From positions 68,526,273 to 68,590,272 of the forward strand of contig JARDVH010000059.1 of assembly GCA_030324005.1 (NCBI GenBank): DNA of 64,000 nt, written 5' to 3'. Under the pieces are notes generated by a model. It saw only the letters and a list, made by a program, of their open reading frames with translations. It was not told where the DNA came from and did no database searches. The stretch is from Negaprion brevirostris (Eukaryota). Of the stretch, positions 1,164 through 55,802 are shown in pieces (the first letter of the stretch is position 1; the number at the start of each line of letters is the position of its first letter). The translations under genes were made by a program, and so were the position numbers.

Positions 1164-1252
1164 CTCGGTCGTGGATGGTCACATGGTGATTCTTTGCGTT
1201 TTCTTGAGTCTATTCTGGCTGGGTCAGAGGAATTTTCACCCATTCCACTCAT
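1164..1252 (-). CDS. NCOA2: First coding exon (coding part, 89 nt) of a p160 nuclear receptor coactivator, most likely NCOA2 (TIF2/GRIP1/SRC-2)
   Basis: Minus strand translates MSGMGENSSDPARIDSRKRKESPCDHPRP(S), close to recalled human NCOA2 [29 protein letters not shown] and including the RKRK basic motif. Donor GAG|gtaaga at 1164/1163. The paralog call rests on MSGMGEN, R13, E21 and the 19-nt UTR; some residues are NCOA1-like. Confidence 0.85.
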
Positions 1253-10949: not shown

Positions 10950-11210
10950 AAGCATAGAATGCAGAAGGAAGTCATTCAATCCATTAAGTCTTCACCGACT
11001 CATTGACAGGAATCTTGCCCAGGCCCCCTCTGTAACCCCACACATTTACCATGGCCAATCCACCTACATCTTTGGGAAGAAACCAGTGCGTCCAGAGGAA
11101 ACCCACACAGATATGGAGAGAACGTGAAAACTCCACACAATCACCCAAAGCTGGAATTGAACGCAGGTCTCTGGTGCTGAGAGGCAGCAGTGCTTACTAC
11201 TATGCCACTT
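10950..11210 (-). mobile_element. HE1-like SINE
   Basis: Reverse complement of the tail, V-domain (gaggaaacccacacaga...actccacaca) and tRNA head (ggaattgaacgcagg...ggcagcagtgct). Confidence 0.85.
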
Positions 11211-24152: not shown

Positions 24153-24240
24153 TTGGTGGCAGAGTGGTTAGCACTACTGCCTCTCAGTACCAGGGACCTG
24201 GGTTCGATTCCCAGCATGAGTCACTGTCTATGCTGAGTTT
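24153..24240 (+). mobile_element. HE1-like SINE head with intact Pol III A/B boxes, truncated by a Penelope repeat
   Basis: TGGCAGAGTGG (A box) ... GGTTCGATTCC (B box). Confidence 0.75.
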
Positions 24241-24420
24241 GGTAAAAAGTCTGACAACACCAGGTTTTAGTCCAACCGATTTATTTGATAATAAACCCAC
24301 AAGCTTTCGAGGGGTCACCCTCTTCGTCAGGTGAATGGAGAGTTCTGGCCTCAGACAGAGCATATAAAAGCACAGACAGTTTAGAGATTACTGATTAGAA
24401 TGCGAATCCTTACACCTAAC
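24241..24420 (-). mobile_element. Penelope pLTR fragment
   Basis: Shares its terminus with the 23138 copy and contains the hammerhead motif at 24297-24334. Confidence 0.65.
24297..24334 (-). ncRNA. Minimal type I hammerhead ribozyme motif
   Basis: Minus strand: UCAC CUGACGA A GAGGG UGAC CCCUC GAAA GCU U GUGG. Both core boxes, a perfect 5-bp stem II, a palindromic AGCU stem III and a 4-bp stem I are present. Confidence 0.65.
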
Positions 24421-30700: not shown

Positions 30701-31599
30701 AGCAGATTAAAGCTCAGTCTGATGTGTTAACCAGCCCTCAGTATATAAAGCACACCATTATGAATATATTAACACTCGCACCTTAGAGACTTAATGGGAA
30801 GTTCAATTTCACACCACAATTTTTCCACAGTCGCTTGAACTGTAGTATTGGTTTTGCACAGCTATTTGATGCATATTTTCATCTTTGTATTACAAGAGTG
30901 CCTTTATAACTTATATACGACAGTGGATTTTAACAGGTCCTCCTTTGACAGAACCAGGCTGTTATTAAGATCAAGACTCACCCACTTCATCATGCAATAA
31001 ACAGCATATGGTATTTCACCTTTAAGCTTCTGACTACACAGTAAGAATGCTGGAATCGTTTCTCCAAAAACAGAAAAATATCCACGACGAGGTGATTTAA
31101 TCTAGAACAGTTTTAATGTAAGCAGAAACAACTAAACCAGACCAGACATCAAGCAACCACAGTAACCTGTGGAGTGAGGGTTACATCTTCATTGGTTGTA
31201 TCAAATCATGTGATTTCAACATCTTTAACTTAAATACAATTACAAGCTGTCCCACTTAAAGGAGAGCAGCAACAACAGATATACATTACAAATCATTAAT
31301 TAATTTATGCGTTACAATGAAACATCAAAAACAAACAGCAGAAGCTGGCTTTCAATTGCTCTCAGCATCCTCTTCACTGGCATTATTTACCACAAAGTCA
31401 GGTTACTCAGCTGGTAAGAATGTGTATAGGCATAAGAGTACACATTGCATTCAAGTTGTTCATTTGAATGACTCGGCTTGTTTATCCAATGGACCCAGGA
31501 AGGTCTCTTGATTCAATTCCCGCTGGAATAAACTGGAGTNNNNNNNNNNNNNNNNNNNNNNNNNNNNNNNNNNNNNNNNTCTCTACTGTCTGCATCACA

Positions 31600-34474: not shown

Positions 34475-34725
34475 TATGGTACTGCAATGGCTAAGTGACT
34501 CAAATAGTAATCCAAAGCTTTGGACTCACCGAGTTCAAATTTTTGAAAGAAAATTCTAGAAATACAAGGCGACAGCTTCAGAAAAAGCGATCATTAAGCA
34601 GTCATGTCATCTTAGAAACAGGTTCACTAATATCTTTGGGGAAGGAAGTCTTTTATTGTTAGTTGGTGTGCCCCACGTGACTCAATAATTGACCAACATG
34701 GTTGACCTTTAACTGTTCTAGGAAG
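34475..34725 (+). mobile_element. tRNA-derived shark SINE (same family as the split SINE at 50115/52307)
   Basis: tagtaatccaaag...gagttcaaat...ggttcactaatatctttggggaaggaa...gtgactc...tggttgacctttaactg. Confidence 0.6.
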
Positions 34726-45504: not shown

Positions 45505-46240
45505 AGATCTACAACAAATATTTATACAGCCTCTTTAATGTAATAAGCTGCCCTAAAACACTTCACAGCAGCATTGTAAAACAAAGTATAATACCGAGCC
45601 ATATAACAAGATATTAAGTCAGACGATCAAAGTAAACTTTAAGAAGTGTTTTAAAGGAGGAAAAGTGTAAGAAAGGAAAAGTCAGGTAGTGAGTTGGAAA
45701 ATTGTAGAGAGAAATCTAGAGCCTATGTATTTAGACATAGCCACCAACAGTTGACAATTAAAATCAGAGACTAATTTGAAGAGTGCAAGTACCTCAGAGG
45801 AAATTAATGAGGCAGGGAGGATCGAGACCATGGAGAGATTGGAAAACAGTGGAAATTTTAAAAATTAAAACATATCTTGACCAGGAGCCAACAGGATGGG
45901 ACTTGGTACTAGTTAAAGGCAGCAGAGTTTTGGATGACCTTAAGTTTACTTACACTGGACTGTGGGAAGCCTGCCAGGAATAGTCAACTCTGGAGGTAAC
46001 AAAAGCACCAATGAGTGTTTCAGTGGCAAGCAACTAGAGACAGTGATGAAGTCAAGTAATGTTACAGAGGTGGAAATAGACAATTGTACAGTGGCCCAAA
46101 CAGGATACAAGTTCAGGGTTAAGTAAGTGTGAACAGACCCAGCTTAATTTCAACTTACTGGCAGGGAGAGAAATGAAGCCGGTAGCTAGAGAATGAGGTT
46201 TGCAGCATGGACTAGAAGCAATGGTGTTGTTCCTCACCAT
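45505..46240 (-). mobile_element. L2-like LINE 3' remnant
   Basis: Tail acaacaaatatttatacagcctctttaatg...cacttcacag; similar copy at ~47040-47230. Confidence 0.55.
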
Positions 46241-47489
46241 TTAGGGAATACCTTATTAAGATGGTACCAAAGATCATGGGATTTGCTTATGAGACACTAG
46301 AGAAACTGGCATTCCTTCCATTGTGATAGTTAACGGATGATCTTGTCGGTGTTCACTGTGCAGTAAACAGAGGGGAGGGGGGAATGAATTCTGCTGGTCA
46401 GTGACTTTATAATTAGAAGATGCAAATCATTTAGTTATGCTTAGTCTCTAAATCCCCATGCTTNNNNNNNNNNNNNNNNNNNNNNNNNNNNNNNNNNNNN
46501 NNNNNNNNNNNNNNNNACATGAAAAAGCAAGGTGTTAACTAGCAGCTAAGTACTAAATAGCAGGTGACCACCACCTGGTACCTTTACATAATGTTGCCAC
46601 TCCACCCGACACCAATTTACTCATCCCCATTAATGTCGTTCATTAGTCCCCACTGACATTCACACTTCCCCACTACTAAAAAAGGACTTCAAATTTCTGT
46701 CTTACCATCTAATTAAGAAACAAAATCAATGGCGTTACATGGTCCCCACACATTTTACACTTGGTATATTCTCTCAATTGCAGCTGGTGTGCAAGGTGTA
46801 AAACACATTGGTGTTAAAGATTTGCACTGCAATTAATAAAGTAGATATTATCGCCCAGCAATTTATAAAGCCAGTGGGGCAAAATGTCTGGGAATGGTGG
46901 TGGCAGAAGCTACAATTCCACAGTGAAAGTTTTGCAACGAGTTATATGGATGCAAAAATCAGAGTTCAAAGAAACAGATAGGAGATGGGAAGGGATAAAC
47001 ATAGCAAGTTCCTCCAGGTAGTTTGAGCACTGGGCAACAGCAGCAACTTATATGACACTTTTAACATTATAAAATGCCTCAAGATGCTTCACAGGTGCAT
47101 TATAAAACACACCAAACCACATCAGGAAAGAGGACGACAAATGTCCAAATGTTTGGTCAAACAGGAGCAGTTTAAAAGGAGGAAAGCCAATTAGAGAGTG
47201 GAGAGATAATTCCAGAGCTTGGGCCCAGGTTCAATAAACATTCATATTATGCCACACACCATATCGAGTTGGTGGGAAGACATACAAGCCAATTCTCCAC
47301 ACTGTGTATACGTGCATGGATTAATTTTCTGTCCCTTGAAGTGACAACTCTGGTTCAAAGGCAGTCCAGGGAGCTTTGATCACATGACTACCTGGCTCCA
47401 TGACGACATCTGCATGGTCCCGTGCAGCTCAGTATCTTTGCTTGTGATTGTGCAACAGCAGCTTTTTATATACATTGATCTTTGCTCAT

Positions 47490-48360
47490 CAGTCGTGGGC
47501 ATCACCAGCTAGGTCAGCATTTATTGGCCATCCTGAATTGCCCTTGAGAATTTGGCAGTGAGCCACTTACTTGAACCACTGCTGTCCATGTGGTGTAGGT
47601 ACTCCCACTATGCTGTCAGTGAAGGAGTTCCAAGATTTTGACCTAGCAACATGGAAGGAACTAAGATATAATTCCAAGTCAGTATGGTGTATGGTTTGGA
47701 GGGAAATTNNNNNNNNNNGGTGATGGTATTCCCGTGTACCTGCTGTCCTTGTAGGTGGCAGAGGTTGTGGATTTGTAAAGTACTGGTGAGTTGCTGCAGT
47801 GCATCTTACTGATGGTATACACTGCTGCCACATGTGTCAATAACAGAGGGAGCAAATATTTTAAGATGGTGGATAGGGTGCCAATTAAACAGACCACTTT
47901 GTCTTGGAAAGCACTAAGCTTCTTGAACATTGTTGGGGCTGCACTCACCTAGGCAAGCAGAGAGTATTCCATCAAATTCCTGACATGTAAATGGTGGATA
48001 AGCTTCAGGAATTCAGGAGATGAATTACTCATTGCAAATTTCCAGCTCCTATCTGCTCTTGCAGCCAGAGTAGTTGTGGCTGATCAAAAATAGCCCCCTC
48101 AACAATCATGTTACTGCAGGATTCAGCAATGGTAATGCCATGTAAAGATGGTTAAATTCTCTGTTGTGGAAATGGTCATTGCCTGACACTTGTATGGTTA
48201 CGTGCCAGTTATCAGCCCAAGCTTGAATGTTGTCCTCATCTTGTTGCATGCAGGCACAAACTGCTTCATCATCTGAGGTGTTGCAAATGGTGCTGAACAC
48301 TATGCAATCAGTGAACATCACTACTTATGATGGAGGAAGGTAATTAATAATGCAACTGAT
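47490..48360 (-). mobile_element. Non-LTR retrotransposon (CR1/L2 group) 3' portion
   Basis: Minus frames MFTDC.VF...MQQDEDNIQAWADNW and YTISKMHCSNSP; related copies at 17270-17416 (+), 49790-50050 and 55500-55800. Confidence 0.75.
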
Positions 48361-49039
48361 AGTCGGGTGAAGAATTTGAAAGAATCCCATGGTCTAACAT
48401 CACACAGTTCACCTTCCCCTGACAGTTTTTCTCATCAACTGTCTTGGTCTCCTTGTTCCTCATTTGTCCATCAACGGGAACAGTCTTTTGCAATATACCC
48501 GAGGTGAATTATTACAATACCCATAGTAAATCCACAGGTTTCACCCAATACTTTACGGTTTCCTTCCTCAAGTTGTTGTTGCTCCTAGCTTTGCAGCTGC
48601 ATCCTGCACTTTACCCAACTTTGCCCTAATGCCAGCTTTCAGGGTTTTGCACACATTATACTTGCTGATCACCCTGCATCATGCCAAAATTACTTCACTT
48701 ACCAAAATACAATTTAACCCATCTATAAAGAGCTTTCACTTGATTTAAAATGTCCATTAAATCTTTTCCATCAGAGGACTCAACGTAAGAAGCCAAAGGC
48801 ACCATTACCAAACACCATTAACCAAACAGCTGTACACATGCAGGTTGTACCTCTTAAAGTGAGTCTCTCTCAAGTGGGGGCCTCCAATGGAAAATACTGA
48901 GAATGCAAACTCGCATACAACCATTGTTAGGACACTGAAGTCTAAGGAGCCACTGTCATGTGCATTTAACAAGCAAAGATTCTGCTTAAATAAACCAAGA
49001 ACTGTTGCAGAAATACAAAACCAAAACACTGGATACTGG

Positions 49040-49166
49040 GGCCTGAATTTTACCACCCCACCCGTCACAGGAATCGGAGCGTGCAAGAGGCGGACAATGG
49101 GAAGGTCTATTGACCTTGGCTGGGGTTTTACAGTTTCAGGGCAGGCAAGGCCATAAAATCCCACCC
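49040..49166. mobile_element. Short MITE, PIF/Harbinger-like
   Basis: TIRs ggcctgaatttta / taaaatcccaccc with 3-bp direct repeat TGG on both sides. Confidence 0.65.
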
Positions 49167-49174
49167 TGGAAGTC

Positions 49175-49770
49175 TGAAGTACAAACAGAAAATGCTGGGA
49201 ACATTCAGAATGTCAGGTGAAATCTGTGGAGAGAAGGAGAAACCGAGTTACCATTTCAGATCTGTAACTTTAATCAGAACTGAGAAAAATTGGAAATGCA
49301 ACATGTTTTAAGCAAGTGAAAAGGTGGGGATGAGGAGGAAGAAAAAAAAATCACAAAGGGAATGTATGCGATAGGATGGAAAACAGGAGCGGTCCATTAA
49401 CAAAACGATTGATGGTCCAAGGCCGAAGGGAATGATAAGAAGCCAAATAAAGAATCAAAAGGTATCTAGAGGTGGTGTGAATGGCAGAATAGTGAACAGT
49501 TGTCCTCAAAAAAAGAGAAAACCAAAACCAAAGAGAAAGGAAACAAAATGGAAACATAGGCTACAGGTTGAAACTATTGAACTCAGACAGTGTAAGGTGC
49601 CCAAGTTAAAACAGGAGGGTGACGTTGACCTTCATTGGAACAGTGCAGGAAGTTGGGGATGGAAAGGTCAGAGTGGGAGCAAGATTGAGAATTAAAATGA
49701 CAGGCAGCTTGTAGGCTGAACAGAAGTCCTCTCCAAAGTGGTCATCCAATCTGCATTTGTTTCCTAAAGA
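49175..49770 (-). mobile_element. Penelope-like element 3' remnant
   Basis: Reverse terminal repeat (acagaaaatgctgg...atctgtggagag), purine-rich UTR and decayed endonuclease-region sequence. Confidence 0.6.
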
Positions 49771-50114
49771 AAAAGAGACTGCAACTGTACACTGGTGGTG
49801 AAATGAGTGAATGTTGTGGATGGGGTGCCACTGAAGCAAGCTGCTTTGTCTTAGATTATTTTGAAAATCTTGAATATTGTTTGAGTGCAGCTTCAACAAG
49901 CAAGTGGAGCATTTTCCATTACACCCCTGACATGTGTGTTGTAATTGATGGATAGGCGTTGGGGAGTCAGTAGGTGAATTTCTGTAGCCACAATATTTAT
50001 ATAGCTAATCTAGTTGAGGTTCTGGTCAATGGTAACCCGCAGGATGTTGATCCACAGTAGTTTTCCGGAGGCCAATCAAAAAACACTTCATTGATTCAGC
50101 AAACATCTTTAATT

Positions 50115-50224
50115 TCTTCTTAAATTCTTATGGGATGGGAATGTCACTGGCTGAGCCAACATTTATTGCCAATCCCTGAAGGCATTTAAGAGTCAACCAA
50201 ATTGCTGGGATCTGGACTCACATG
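50115..50224 (-). mobile_element. 3' part of a split SINE
   Basis: tgggatgggaatgtcactggctgagccaacatttattgcc...ttaagagtcaacc...ctggactcacatg, then similarity stops abruptly. Confidence 0.65.
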
Positions 50225-50433
50225 CAACAGATTCAGGAGTGCAACAATAGAGAGTCAGCAGCATTGAGGTTGTCATCAATAGGTGGGAGGGAAGTTCTGA
50301 AAAGAAACTTTCCTCTCCCTGCCTCTTTGGACAGATCAAAGTATTTTTTTTTACAAATTTGCCCTTGTAACATAAGCTGTGGCACGTTTCTTTGATCCTA
50401 CCCTTTTCCTTTCATTTCTCTTTTTTTCCCCAG

Positions 50434-50553
50434 ATGATAATTGAGCCCACCAGTCAGAAGCTGCTGCCAGACCCCCTTAAAGAGCCATATTACCAGCCAC
50501 CATACACCGTTGTGTTAGAGCTAACAGATGTGTTGCTGCACCCAGAGTGGTCG
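50434..50553 (+). CDS. TIMM50: Isolated internal coding exon of mitochondrial import inner membrane translocase subunit TIM50 (possibly a non-functional duplicated fragment)
   Basis: Long polypyrimidine tract ...tttttttccccag|ATG...TGG TCG|gtaagt; 120 nt, phase 0/0. It encodes [40 protein letters not shown] versus recalled human [40 protein letters not shown]. Confidence 0.92.
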
Positions 50554-50773
50554 GTAAGTCTCTCAACTCCTGGTCGTACAGCATCTCGCGGCAACACTCG
50601 CCACAGGGAATGCTTCTGCAACAAGTGAACCACTTTGGCAAGATTACCTCAGAGGAGGAGGAAAGTCTGCGGAAAAGGCTTTCTGTTCAAAAGATTTTTT
50701 TAAAAGAAAAGCAAACTTTTTCAAAATGTTCATCTTCAAGTTATCATCTTGTCATTTGTCCAATTAGAGCGTT

Positions 50774-51403
50774 GAACATACAGCACAGGAACAGGCCCTT
50801 CAGCCCACGATGTTGTGCTGAACATGATGCCAACTAATTAAACTAATCCCTTCTGCCTGCTCTTGGTCCATATCCCTCTATTCCTCACATATTCATGTGC
50901 TTATCTAAAAGCCCCTTCAACGCCCCTATTGTATCTGCCTCCACCACCATCCCTGGCAGTGAGTTTCAGACACCTACCACCCTCTGTGCAAAAAATCTTG
51001 CCCTTCACGTCATTGCCTTTGAACTTTGCCCCTCTCACCTTAAATGCCGTATTAGACATTTCAACTCTGGGAAAAAGATTCTGACTGTCAACCCTATCTA
51101 CGCCTCTGATAATTTTATACATTTCTATCAGGTCTCCTCTCAGTCTCCGCCGCTCCAGAGAAAACAACCCTGGTTTGTCCAGCCTCTCCTTATGGTTCAT
51201 ACCCTCCAATCCAGGCAGCATCCTTGTAAACCTCTTTTGCACCCTCTCCAAAGTCCTCCATATCCTTCCTGTAATGTGGCGACCAGAATCAAAGCTAACC
51301 TTAGTTTTATAAAGTTGCAACACGGAATCCTTATTCTTGTACTCAGTGCCGCAGCCAATGAGGCAAGCGTGCCATACGCCTTCTTTACCACCCTACACTC
51401 CAC
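50774..51403 (-). mobile_element. CR1 (HER1-like) LINE 3' end
   Basis: Minus ORF LERVQKRFTRMLPGLEGMNHKERLDKPGLFSLERRRLRGDLIEMYKIIRG; tail gaacatacagcacaggaacaggcccttcagccc. Confidence 0.9.
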
Positions 51404-51639
51404 CTAATGCAGGCCGAGAGTATTGGCTTTAATTTTTGGAGCAAGGTTTATACCTGGGACCTCAGGCATGAGTCCAGCTGCTGACCAAAGATTGTAAAAG
51501 CCTCTGAGGAAAAGCTGTTGTTACTTTTCATATCGCTAATGCCCTGTATGTCAAACTCAATTTGAGAAAAGCAAACTTTAAATTGCAAAGTTAGCAAATA
51601 ACCAATAGAGGAATGGAAAATGAGATTTCTTATTAAAGA

Positions 51640-51766
51640 CACCATGGCACAACAGTTAGCGCTGCTGCCTCACAGCACCAGTGACTCAGGTTCAATTCCA
51701 ATTTTCAGTCACTATTTGCGCGGAGTCTGCATGTTCTCCCTGTGTCTGCGTGGGTTTCCCCCGGGT
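51640..51766 (+). mobile_element. HE1-like SINE 5' half
   Basis: gttagcgctgctgcctcacagcacc...ggttcaattcc...catgttctccctgtgtctgcgtgggtttcc. Confidence 0.8.
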
Positions 51767-51769
51767 GAG

Positions 51770-52304
51770 TTTAGGAGTTGCAGCTATATAGGAACCTGGT
51801 CAGACCGCACATGGGTACTGTGCTCAGTTCTGGTTGCCTCATTACAGGAAGGATGTGGAAGCCATAGAAAGGATGCAGAGGAGATTTACAAGGATGTTGC
51901 CTGGATTAGGTGGCATGCCTTATGAGGATNNNNNNNNNNNNNNNNNNNNNNNNNNNNNNNNNNNNNNNNNNNNNNNNNNNNNNNNNNNNNNNNNNNNNNN
52001 NNNNNNNNNNNNNNNNNNNNNNNNNNNNNCACAATTCCCCACGTCTGTCCCTGAGAGGACCGATTTTACCCCTAGCCACCCTTTTGTTCTTAAGATAGGA
52101 GTAAAATGCCTTTGGATTCTCCTTAACCCAACCTGCCAAAGCCATCTCATGCCCCCTCTTCGCTCTCCTAACTCCCCGTTTGAGATCCCTCCTACTCTCC
52201 CTGTATTCCTCCAACGCTCTCTCTGTTCCCAGCTGCTTAGACCTGACATACGCCTCTCGTTTCTTCGTAACCAGGTCTTCTATATCTCTAGTAGTCCACG
52301 GATC
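51770..52304. mobile_element. Two CR1 fragments converging on a gap (plus 51770-51929, minus 52030-52304)
   Basis: Plus PHYRKDVEAIERMQRRFTRMLPGL; minus EEYRESRRDLKRGVRRAKRGHEMALAGWVKENPKAFYSY. Confidence 0.85.
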
Positions 52305-52306
52305 AC

Positions 52307-52482
52307 AATCAGATGGATTTTTATGACAATTGACAATGATTTTATGATCATCATTAGATTTTTAATTCCTGGTTTTTACTGAATTCAAATTTCACTCTCA
52401 GGTTGGGGTTCAAACCCAGATCCCCAGATAATTACACTAGGTCTCTGTTACTAGTCCAGCGATAATACCACTATGCCACTGC
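52307..52482 (-). mobile_element. 5' part of the split SINE
   Basis: aatcagatggatttttatgacaattgac...gaattcaaattt...ggggttcaaacccagatcccc...ttactagtccagcgataataccactatgccac (reverse tRNA-like head). Confidence 0.7.
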
Positions 52483-53184
52483 ATTTCCATATCTCTTTCT
52501 TGTGCATGATGCAGCATCTATAGTTCCTTGTCATAGCATAATCTCTGCTGGCATTTTCAGAGTGATGACGCAACCATTTTCCCCCTAAATGTTTTATGTA
52601 AAATGTCACAATTCGAAAATTTTCATTGAGTTCTTTAAGTAAGAGAGTTTGAATAATGCTGAAGTTCAAGATAAGAATGCTGTAGACTTACTTAGAAAAT
52701 GGCTACAAATTTCAATGTTCTTTGGTTTATTCACATTTACAGAATATAGCAAATGATTTGAACGAACAGATGAAAAAAATTCTGACTGATGACGGTACCA
52801 TTGCAATTCTTTTCCAACCAAGCTAAAAAGCACAAAGCATATATTGACTGAGTTGCAAATCTCAATTAACAAGGGTTTTTAAAAAAATTAGACAATGTAT
52901 AATTAATGCCGTTGTTTTATGAAACAGATGTTGTAATTGTCATTACTAGTAGAGGCAATTCAGAGTGCTCCTAGTTGTACAACTTTAATCAGTGACTTAG
53001 CAACTAAATGATTCACTGTAGGATTCTGCCAATAGTTCAATGTGTTTATCTAGTGAATACTAAACAGGCAGTCAGGATGGTGCCAGTTAGTATTTCAGCC
53101 CTGGGTTAGAAAAGAAACAAATTGTCCAGAACCATCACTCATTACTGCTGATCAGTAAATCTGCTGAACACATACATATTCTTT

Positions 53185-53615
53185 CCATTTGTATTGCAGC
53201 TTGGTACATCTCCTGTTCTGTCCAAGACCGCAAGAAACTACAAAGGGCTGTGAACGTAGTCCAGTATATCATGCAAATCAGCCTCCCATCCGCTGCCTCA
53301 GGAAAGCAGCCAGCATAATCAAGGATTCCACGCACCCTGGACATACTGTCTTCCACCTTCTTCCGTTGAGAAAAAGATACAAAAGTCTGAGATCACGTAC
53401 CGACCAACTCAAGAACAGCTTCTTCCCTGTTACTATCAGACCTTTGAATGGACTTACCTCACATTAAGTTTATCTTTCTCTAAATCTTATGACTGTAAAC
53501 TTACATTTTGGACCCTCTCCTTTCCAATGAATGAGATGCTTTGTCTGTATAGTGCACAAGAAACAGTACTTTTACTGTATACTAATATACATGACAATAA
53601 TAAATTAAATCAAAA
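53185..53615 (+). mobile_element. Rex1/Babar LINE 3' end
   Basis: CLRKAASIIKDSTHPGHTVFHLLPLRKRYKSLRSRTDQLKNSFFPVTIRPLNG is the characteristic Rex/Babar C-terminus; the tail ends gacaataataaattaaatc. Confidence 0.8.
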
Positions 53616-54049
53616 ACACATGTCGACAGACCAAATTTGCTTGTGATACTCCTGTAACCAAATAGCCTACCAATGCCACCTGAGCTCGTAACTGAATAAC
53701 TACCCGAATGACGTACTAAAATATAAATTGAACACTAGGCTCCACACCACAATAAAAAATGAGGTCTTGAAGCCTAGGCAAATGTAACCTAGGCTAGTAC
53801 TTCAGCACAATACAGAAGAGATGTTTCACTGTTAAAGATACTTTCTTTCAAATGAGACATTAGTTTAGAGGATCTTGGTTTAAAGATCAGTTTAGATGGC
53901 CACAAAACACCTCACTGCACTATTCAGAGATTTGGGAGTCTATCTGAAATCCTTGCTGACTCTCAAAAATGTGATGTTTGAGGAGAATGTTATGGTAAAA
54001 GTTGCTTTTAGAAAAAAATGAAATAAAGTGAATGAGAAAAATAGTTAAA

Positions 54050-54278
54050 GTAAAGTCGCCATCGTCCCAGGTGACCATAGGCTGCTCTCTACTTTGAGGG
54101 GGACAGCTGACTCAGTGATGAAGAGCAATGCCAACAGCATGGGGTTCAATTCCCCCATCAGCTGAGGTCATTCATGAAGGCCCCACCTTCTCAACCTTGC
54201 CCCTTGCCGGAGGTGTGGTGATCCTCAGGTTAAATCACCACCAGTGTCGATGGTCATCTGGAACTATTGTGACTTTAC
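54050..54278. repeat. SINE-derived unit bounded by 29-bp inverted repeats
   Basis: 54050-54078 versus the reverse complement of 54250-54278: 24/29 identical; internal GGTTCAATTCC B box. Confidence 0.6.
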
Positions 54279-55802
54279 CTAGAAAAATAACTGGACCTCT
54301 TGTCATTGTTATAATGGCTCAAATCAACAGCAAGTATGTTTCTTTTTACTTCTTGATCGCGTAGTCTTGTGACAAAAATAATTTTTGACCCAATCACCAA
54401 GGATAAAGTGAAATCAGCCATGATATCTAACAACATTTGATATGAGATTTCTATCAGAAGCAAGGTAGAAAGAAAATTATTTCCCCATTTTGACAAAAAA
54501 CCAAAATACTGGGCTAGTTGGAAGATTGCACTGTAAATAACAATCTCAGTATGTTGAGCTAAAACAATCAGTTCCTGTTGAGAAATCAAAATATTCAGGT
54601 TTAGGTTCCCAACCTAAAAATATTTGCAGACTTATATGTTCACTTAGCATAATCTACTAAACAACAGACAATCATATCAGAACTTCCAGCTTATTAAATT
54701 TTAGTATGAACATGCAATGCAAAGACGAATGTGGAGGAGGAGGAGGTGAGGAAAGAACCCCCCCCCCCAACAAACAGATGAACTAGGCTGCTTGAGACAT
54801 GTACCTATTCACTCTTCTTTGTTCAAAAGTAAAGACATTTTGCAAAGTCATAATTCCACTGGCCCTCTCATTCAATTGCTATTCTACACTTGAGCTTAAA
54901 TAATGAATCAGTCACTGACATTATGTCAAAGTTCCGTCCTTAACCAATAGCATACACACGAACCACCAGCGCTCACTGAATGCCAGTTCAAGACACTCAA
55001 GACCAAAAACTCCCAAAGCATAAGTATCGAATCCTAGCAAGTTTCTCCAGTGCCACCCCAACTGAGAACAATTAGCGAGCATAGATCAGGTCAGATTTCA
55101 AAGACAAGTCCTCCTTCTTTTGTATTTTTTAATTTGTGATCAGGATGTAGGTGCATTGGCAGGCCTGCATTTAATAGCAATCCAGAGTTGCCATCAATGG
55201 TAGGCCTTTTCTTTCAATCATTCCATCAAGCTGGCATTTGCAATGCCATATTAAAACACAGCTTCAATACTGAAACTGCTGTTTTTCAAGTGAGATGCCA
55301 GGTATTAAACCAAGGTCCTGCAAACTGAGAACAAGTTCAGGTAAATATTAAATATGCACAGCTCCCGTGATGGCTTTACATAAAAAATTCTAGGATACCG
55401 ATCCAGCCACAATAAACATGTTCAAAAGAATGATATGCAACTTTGAAGGGGAAAAATGTCATTTTGACATTGCTGCTTTTGTCCTTCTTATGAGGTCTCA
55501 GGGCAAGCAGAACTGTGAAATAACATTGACAAGTTGCTGAAATATGCTGTACGTAGTTAGTACTTCATTCACACTACACCAATGGTAAAGGGGATGAATA
55601 TTGAGTTCTGCAGCAGGGGTTTTTATAGGCTGGACTACTTCATCCTGGACAGCTTTGAGCTTCTTTGATGGCATCTTTTCAAGGCAAGCATGGAGTAGAG
55701 TATTACATTGGTAACTCGGCTTTATAGGGGCTAAGTGGTAAGAGGAGATGAAATAGTGTTCTCAGATTCTGCCCCAATTTTGTAGTCAACGTCAATGGAG
55801 TT

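Follow-up and report, generated by a model that had tools for sequence, protein, structure and literature searches.

A splice-intact TIMM50 exon near NCOA2 in a shark genome assembly, probably misplaced by a repeat-induced chimeric join

Results

An intact TIMM50 exon lies antisense to NCOA2

The window analysed here is the whole 64-kb stretch of Negaprion brevirostris contig JARDVH010000059.1, and coordinates are counted from its first letter. The host locus is marked by the coding part of the first coding exon of NCOA2 (1166–1252, minus strand), which shares 28 of 29 aa with shark NCOA2 and is the only NCOA2 exon found in the window. Its residue 14 is Ile, where the three shark proteins used for comparison have Leu. 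An exon of the mitochondrial-import gene TIMM50 lies some 49 kb upstream of it, antisense to NCOA2. The block around this TIMM50 exon is presumably inside a 5′ intron of NCOA2, to judge by the structure of the human gene.

The TIMM50 exon is internal and occupies 50434–50553 on the plus strand. It is 120 bp long, has phase 0/0, contains no stop and is bounded by AG and GT; its acceptor consists of a long polypyrimidine tract with CAG, and its donor is GTAAGT. The end of the upstream intron, with the polypyrimidine tract and AG (50225–50433, plus strand), is continuous with the exon in a contig of a related species (X1 record 4). The start of the downstream intron, with the donor (50554–50770, plus strand), is covered by the same contig and by a second one (X6 record 21), through to 50804. 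Sequence, protein comparison, a profile and tblastn all identify the exon, which corresponds to aa 174–213 of protein P0011. Of the 17 TIMM50 matches from chondrichthyans, 13 agree with its 40-aa peptide at 100% identity and the other four at 98%. The boundaries are conserved as well: locus L001 carries AG and GT at the same codons, and all 13 genomic read-through ORFs inspected part at the same donor. A preliminary description had seen here a clean exon with a strong acceptor and donor and intronic flanks, and the sequence, the 17 proteins, L001 and the ORFs agree. The CpG richness it had noticed in the 130 bp after the exon is real too, since 50554–50683 contains five CpG, a count reached in only 5 of 449 N-free stretches of 130 bp.

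Broader searches added little. Pfam returned no family for a 39-aa exon peptide, and a PDB search with the exon peptide found yeast Tim50 only (E 0.04). A metagenome scan retrieved 54 TIM50 loci, the best at 95% identity and none at 100%, and gave no match to the intronic flanks of the block. Rfam yielded four matches over 45600–55800, all far under the gathering score. A search of sequencing runs listed no RNA run that carries the sequence; six RNA-guessed runs share 0.05–0.06 of the words, which is about the exon's own share and was not counted as evidence.

No second TIMM50 exon was found in the sequenced part of the window by tblastn with the 17 proteins or by a profile HMM, in agreement with the preliminary description, which had missed neighbouring exons by eye. 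The sole other tblastn match (31350–31505) has 30% identity and E values of 0.008–0.06, whereas true exons match near 100%; with the next-best HMM match in the window at E 5.3, we regard it as chance. The block is an unspliced intron–exon–intron piece of TIMM50. As had been stated before, it is not a processed pseudogene, in which introns are removed and exons joined: splice sites and intronic flanks are kept, and there are no joined exons.

TIMM50 and NCOA2 are on separate records in all nine sharks and rays that have a record length for both, where separate means that record lengths differ and each record is the longest contig of its protein cluster. The two records measure 30.0 and 199.5 Mb in the white shark and 24.4 and 191.9 Mb in the small-spotted catshark. 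The non-linkage previously asserted from the human genome therefore extends to cartilaginous fishes.

Repeats and a discordant gap surround the exon

To the left of the block, 45600–50104 belongs to the host locus and comprises old repeats and unique DNA. It is followed by the tail part of a SINE on the minus strand (50105–50203), likely the host-locus copy, which falls in a high-copy bin. The SINE continues through 50204–50224 (minus strand). Its head part, again host locus and on the minus strand, is found at 52307–52490.

Between these SINE halves, the TIMM50 intron runs into a decayed, 5′-truncated CR1 LINE on the minus strand (50771–51400), which tblastn with P0157 aligned to ORF2 aa 763–925 with a frameshift and deletions. 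Unique DNA separates it from the head of a second SINE family (51645–51767, plus strand), cut at 51767 and recognised by self-BLAST to 11097–11207 and 24167–24241. We presume this family to be HE1-like, and the assignment of the names HE1 and SacSINE1 to elements of this window is likewise our assumption. Among the rows listed, contigs of two of the four runs introduced below have loose ends at 51767. A young CR1 piece on the plus strand follows (51775–51929; ORF2 aa 776–826 by tblastn), and the assembly contig dead-ends inside it. The names HE1 and SacSINE1 appear for shark SINEs in PMC3747384 and PMC5499810.

The gap reported in the preliminary description is present as 100 N (51930–52029), a nominal size. 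Beyond it lies a 5′-truncated CR1 with an open frame on the minus strand (52030–52306; ORF2 aa 297–387), which faces the gap and has the SINE head immediately next to it. The preliminary description had set the right end of the block at 52306; 52030–52306 is a separate CR1 piece on the far side of the gap. Since this CR1 adjoins the SINE head and points into the gap, its insertion at 52306 alone accounts for the split SINE, of which it is the likely cause.

The foreign block thus ends at a contig end with discordant flanks, a plus-strand CR1 (aa 776–826) facing a minus-strand CR1 (aa 297–387) across the gap. Three other 100-N gaps of the window have an adjoining ORF2 match (21901, 27323 and 61109), and at each of them a CR1 3′ tail and the ORF2 match have the same orientation; two of these tails were matched by BLAST to the tail at 50771, and the third was judged by eye. 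The remaining three 100-N gaps have no adjoining ORF2 match. If both CR1s were complete, the gap at 51930 would need at least 330 + 1647 nt. The assembly is fragmented, with 21 gaps in 64 kb and a median ungapped piece of 2.9 kb.

Contigs of related species show TIMM50 intron on both sides of the exon

Contigs of 4 of the 24 listed runs were aligned to 45600–55800 at 90% likeness, with eight records per run. In X4, all eight listed contigs match without a single difference over 6,212 aligned letters, so that X4 comes from the species of the window, perhaps from the very sample behind the assembly. The other three runs, X1, X6 and X8, are from relatives that stand about 2–3% apart from the window. 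Over the left flank, the listed X4 contigs are identical up to 50046 and the relatives are 1.9–3.2% diverged.

One contig, X1 record 4 (942 letters), contains the exon and both intron flanks and matches 50204–50804 with five substitutions, and its first 324 letters are unaligned there. X6 record 21 covers 50421–50804. These two contigs indicate that the flanks of the block are true timm50 intron in the relatives and that the CR1 at 50771 is part of this intron; its 3′ end adjoins the intron there too, and the relatives' contigs end at 50804. Because X1 record 4 leaves the window at about 50204, donor and window part inside the SINE half and not at 50224, where the preliminary description had drawn the edge of the foreign block (50224/50225). 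A different contig, X1 record 3, runs over 49181–50176 and so connects the left flank with the greater part of the SINE tail.

This departure bears on the idea that a real timm50 gene, nested or relocated and divided by very long introns, is present. The intact exon and splice sites would suit such a gene, and single exons could hide in gaps. Against it, the X1 donor contig leaves the window at 50204, the two genes are unlinked in 9/9 species, and the remaining exons do not lie collinearly within the 64-kb window: none occurs in the 50 kb upstream or the 13 kb downstream. The preliminary description had held that its reading would be overturned if they lay collinearly on the scaffold. We find a nested gene scarcely credible.

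The block differs from the relatives at 5 of 601 positions in X1 and 5 of 384 in X6 (0.8–1.3%), and the flanks at 179 of 6253 and 159 of 5239 (about 3%). Fisher's test gives p = 0.0014 for X1 and 0.057 for X6, or 0.013 and 0.36 with all differences put outside the exon. Both flanks diverge alike, and the block differs from them. Given this low divergence, the block is not decaying as an old copy would. The closeness could come from constraint around the exon, from a locally lower rate of change or from a foreign-species origin of the DNA, any of which would suffice.

The block (50204–50804) is two to three times closer to the relatives than the flanks are. Within 50421–50804, the alignments to the window carry 15 gap letters in X6 and 17 in X1, which suggests that the TIMM50 intron flank has lost about 15 bp in the window.

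Several depth and word-share observations were not counted as evidence. Among the listed X4 contigs, none falls in 50047–52452 or bridges either end of the block. Low X4 cover was considered and set aside: depth in the exon bin is 2.17 versus 4.3–8.9 in other low-depth bins, and all of it could be spill-over from the neighbouring CR1. In the three relatives, exon-bin depth is near the single-copy level, and the word shares of the two runs labelled organism A (0.41 in the one whose contigs were aligned, 0.32 in the other) are no higher than those of the relatives. Together, these shares and depths raise the idea that the block is other-species DNA and do not show it.

Elsewhere in the aligned region, all three relatives stop matching at 48959 (151–198 letters run on) and resume at 49180–49181 (after 1,266 other letters in X8). 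X4 contigs cross 48959 and 49180 without difference, so that 48960–49180 is a real structural difference between species. This serves as a control: real species differences show up where repeats do not intervene. The 53-N gap at 46464–46516 is spanned by contigs of all three relatives, and an X4 contig starts exactly at 46517. At 54084–54245 there are many opposite-strand joints, and each of the four runs has long loose ends at 54245; this is a high-copy element with inverted ends, probably a MITE or the end of a DNA transposon.

The left junction probably falls inside a shared SINE

The preliminary description held that one SINE breaks off at 50224 and resumes in the same orientation at 52307, and that an uninterrupted copy at 34475–34725 fixes the normal spacing of the halves. 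The first part stands: single contigs fit both SINE halves in one orientation in three of the four runs (joints 50207→52345 and 50177→52365, with a short side of 21–22 letters). The tail and head halves are joined in this way in generic contigs, and X6 record 22 runs from the head at 52373 into the right flank. The spacing does not stand, as the 34475–34725 copy is too decayed to fix either spacing or register; 52 of 300 shuffles reach its score to the head half and 10 of 300 its score to the tail half. Homology of this copy to the sequence past 50224 is not significant, 452 of 1883 random stretches being equally good. We also considered the two joints as empty-site alleles and rejected this, since the short side has only 21–22 letters, the coordinates are the same in three runs, and the ends lie within the SINE halves, away from the junctions, a pattern to be expected of generic SINE copies.

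At the left, the switch of loci takes place within a contig, with no assembly gap. In the one X1 contig that bears on it, the switch point lies in a repeat common to both loci, the SINE stretch 50204–50224, which is likely the switch zone between SINE copies. As X1 record 4 matches from 50204, 50224 is ordinary donor sequence and the switch occurs inside the SINE.

The block edges offer a motif that resembles a target-site duplication (TSD): CAACAGAT (50225–50232) is like CAATCAGAT (52306–52314), an imperfect, gapped 8/9 match with a post hoc chance of about 0.003. The left copy, CAACAGAT, is present in the X1 donor contig and so would not be recipient sequence, which a TSD has to be. Exact words common to the two junction regions do not exceed 5 nt, and 50195–50260 contains no poly(A), LINE or other repeat tail and no tandem array.

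These observations weigh on the CR1-mediated transduction that the preliminary description had offered as one route. On this view, transcription of a CR1 lying antisense in the timm50 intron (52304–52032 its 5′ part, 51359–50771 its 3′ part) would have run on through the exon, and the product would have been inserted into the SINE with a target-site duplication of 8–9 bp, the antisense transcript explaining the retained introns. The two minus-strand CR1 pieces are indeed collinear in ORF2 (aa 297–387, then 763–925), and the TSD-like 8/9 match sits at the two SINE edges. However, the would-be 3′ end has no tail, and the left "TSD" with 21 bp of SINE is present in the X1 donor contig. Of the two pieces, the 3′ one is decayed, and they are separated by the gap and by 530 bp or more of unrelated sequence that includes the plus-strand CR1. 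According to PMC3747384, stringent 3′-end recognition is a requirement of LINEs that have SINE partners, notably CR1, which also speaks against this route. Taken together, CR1 transduction is very improbable.

A chimeric assembly join is the preferred explanation

The explanation we favour, and hold to be probable, is that the block is the species' one true timm50 exon, misplaced by a repeat-induced chimeric assembly join. The true host locus would read SINE tail, minus-strand CR1 insertion, SINE head. The true donor locus would be an intron with a SINE fragment, the exon, and an intron with the minus-strand CR1, the second SINE and the plus-strand CR1. The assembly path would have entered the host SINE and left it near 50204 via the SINE copy of the timm50 intron. 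The chimeric contig would then follow timm50 for 1.7 kb and dead-end in the young plus-strand CR1 at 51929, and the dead-ended contig would have been scaffolded back to the host's minus-strand CR1 across 100 N. On this model, we infer that past 50204 the SINE of the donor goes on in register, and that the join is a product of the assembly alone.

The model has costs. Its weak point is the left junction, where the argument draws on one contig of one relative; the 324 unaligned letters of X1 record 4 could fit elsewhere via a further joint (there are 1032 more) or be a private indel. As the left switch has no gap, the misjoin must be a within-contig error there. The likeness of CAACAGAT and CAATCAGAT must then be a coincidence. 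Among the eight listed X4 contigs, moreover, none displays an empty host site or the exon in its true donor setting.

A larger misplaced piece would be a second kind of artefact. Here the left flank (at least 45600–50203) would also be timm50 intron, the false join would lie only at scaffold gaps, and the break in X1 would be a private indel. The discordant gap at 51930 is compatible with this, and the 324 unaligned letters could then be that indel. Yet in divergence (about 2–3%) the left flank resembles the right flank and not the block, contigs of 3/3 relatives span the gap at 46464, the whole sequenced stretch to the left is free of upstream TIMM50 exons, and the in-register SINE halves would be a coincidence. 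We give this reading a slim chance. That one or the other artefact, the chimeric join or the larger piece, explains the locus we hold with considerable confidence, and the exon is a genuine TIMM50 exon whose neighbourhood is probably false. The preliminary description had kept mis-assembly as a fallback; it becomes the likelier explanation, in the form of a within-contig chimera at a SINE and not of a simple misplaced contig.

The strongest competitor is a real, recent insertion at the DNA level, in which a break near the host SINE/CR1 would have been repaired by a template switch into the SINE of the timm50 intron (FoSTeS/MMBIR or class 2 TSIP-like). This would be a germline SINE-to-SINE event in one shark species, by which a splice-intact exon of a small chromosome was copied to the 5′ region of NCOA2, with at least 1.7 kb of unspliced timm50 copied antisense to NCOA2. 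As the splice sites point against the direction of NCOA2 transcription, such a copy would be inert. In favour of this reading, there is no gap in the contig that holds the left junction, the SINE halves flank the block in one orientation, and low divergence fits a recent copy. Repeat-to-repeat junctions and interchromosomal templated insertions are described in humans (PMC5120786 and PMC5110952), and an insertion via SINE homology predicts the same picture in the relatives as a misjoin does. On the other side, a gap between discordant CR1s conceals the right junction, and 50204 is unbridged among the listed X4 contigs, yet 48959 and 49180 are bridged, a weak point since repeat tangles may block bridging. 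With pieces of 2.9 kb, chimeric joins should also far outnumber such events. We therefore judge this template switch to be distinctly unlikely, and a real movement of a TIMM50 piece by any route to be unlikely overall. The capture by insertion proposed at the outset is not shown: a CR1 insertion explains the split SINE, the left switch lies inside a shared SINE, and the right end is a contig end. With the terms used, a literature search found no paper on CR1 transduction or on a TIMM50–NCOA2 event.

Discussion

If the locus is an artefact, it warns that chimeric contigs in fragmented shark assemblies can transfer a genuine exon of an essential gene to the wrong chromosome, so that the timm50 model looks incomplete and a duplication is wrongly signalled. 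If it is real, it would document, with a date, how repeats mediate the copying of an exon in a vertebrate genome that evolves slowly. The type of event is known and only the lineage would be new, the shark counterpart of Alu–Alu mediated insertion. It would then offer raw material for exon shuffling, caught before decay, and the antisense exon would probably leave NCOA2 unaffected.

Among known systems, LINE 3′ transduction resembles the locus in that a LINE 3′ end adjoins the moved sequence. It differs, as do processed pseudogenes, in that the present block keeps its introns and lacks a tail, and its LINE, which is decayed, is common to the relatives' donor site. The lack of a poly(A) or LINE tail in 50195–50260 likewise separates the block from class 1 TSIPs. 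Class 2 TSIPs, as presented in PMC5110952, come closer: the template is intronic sequence from a distant locus, with no poly(A), no exact TSD and an apparent small loss of target. In contrast to them, the junction here lies within repeat homology, the right junction is in a gap, and the block is known from an assembly and not from reads. Interchromosomal Alu–Alu or FoSTeS/MMBIR insertions share a breakpoint inside two copies of one SINE family; those in PMC5120786 are array- and PCR-verified human copy gains, whereas the present case is about 2 kb and known from the sequence of an assembly.

Short-read repeat-induced misjoins share with our locus a switch inside a shared repeat, a dead end in a young repeat and undecayed donor sequence. 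Misassembled regions tend to be flanked by transposons, according to PMC7852129, which concerns collapsed high-coverage tomato regions and not chimeras between loci. At the present locus, the case for such a misjoin comes from contigs and not from reads.
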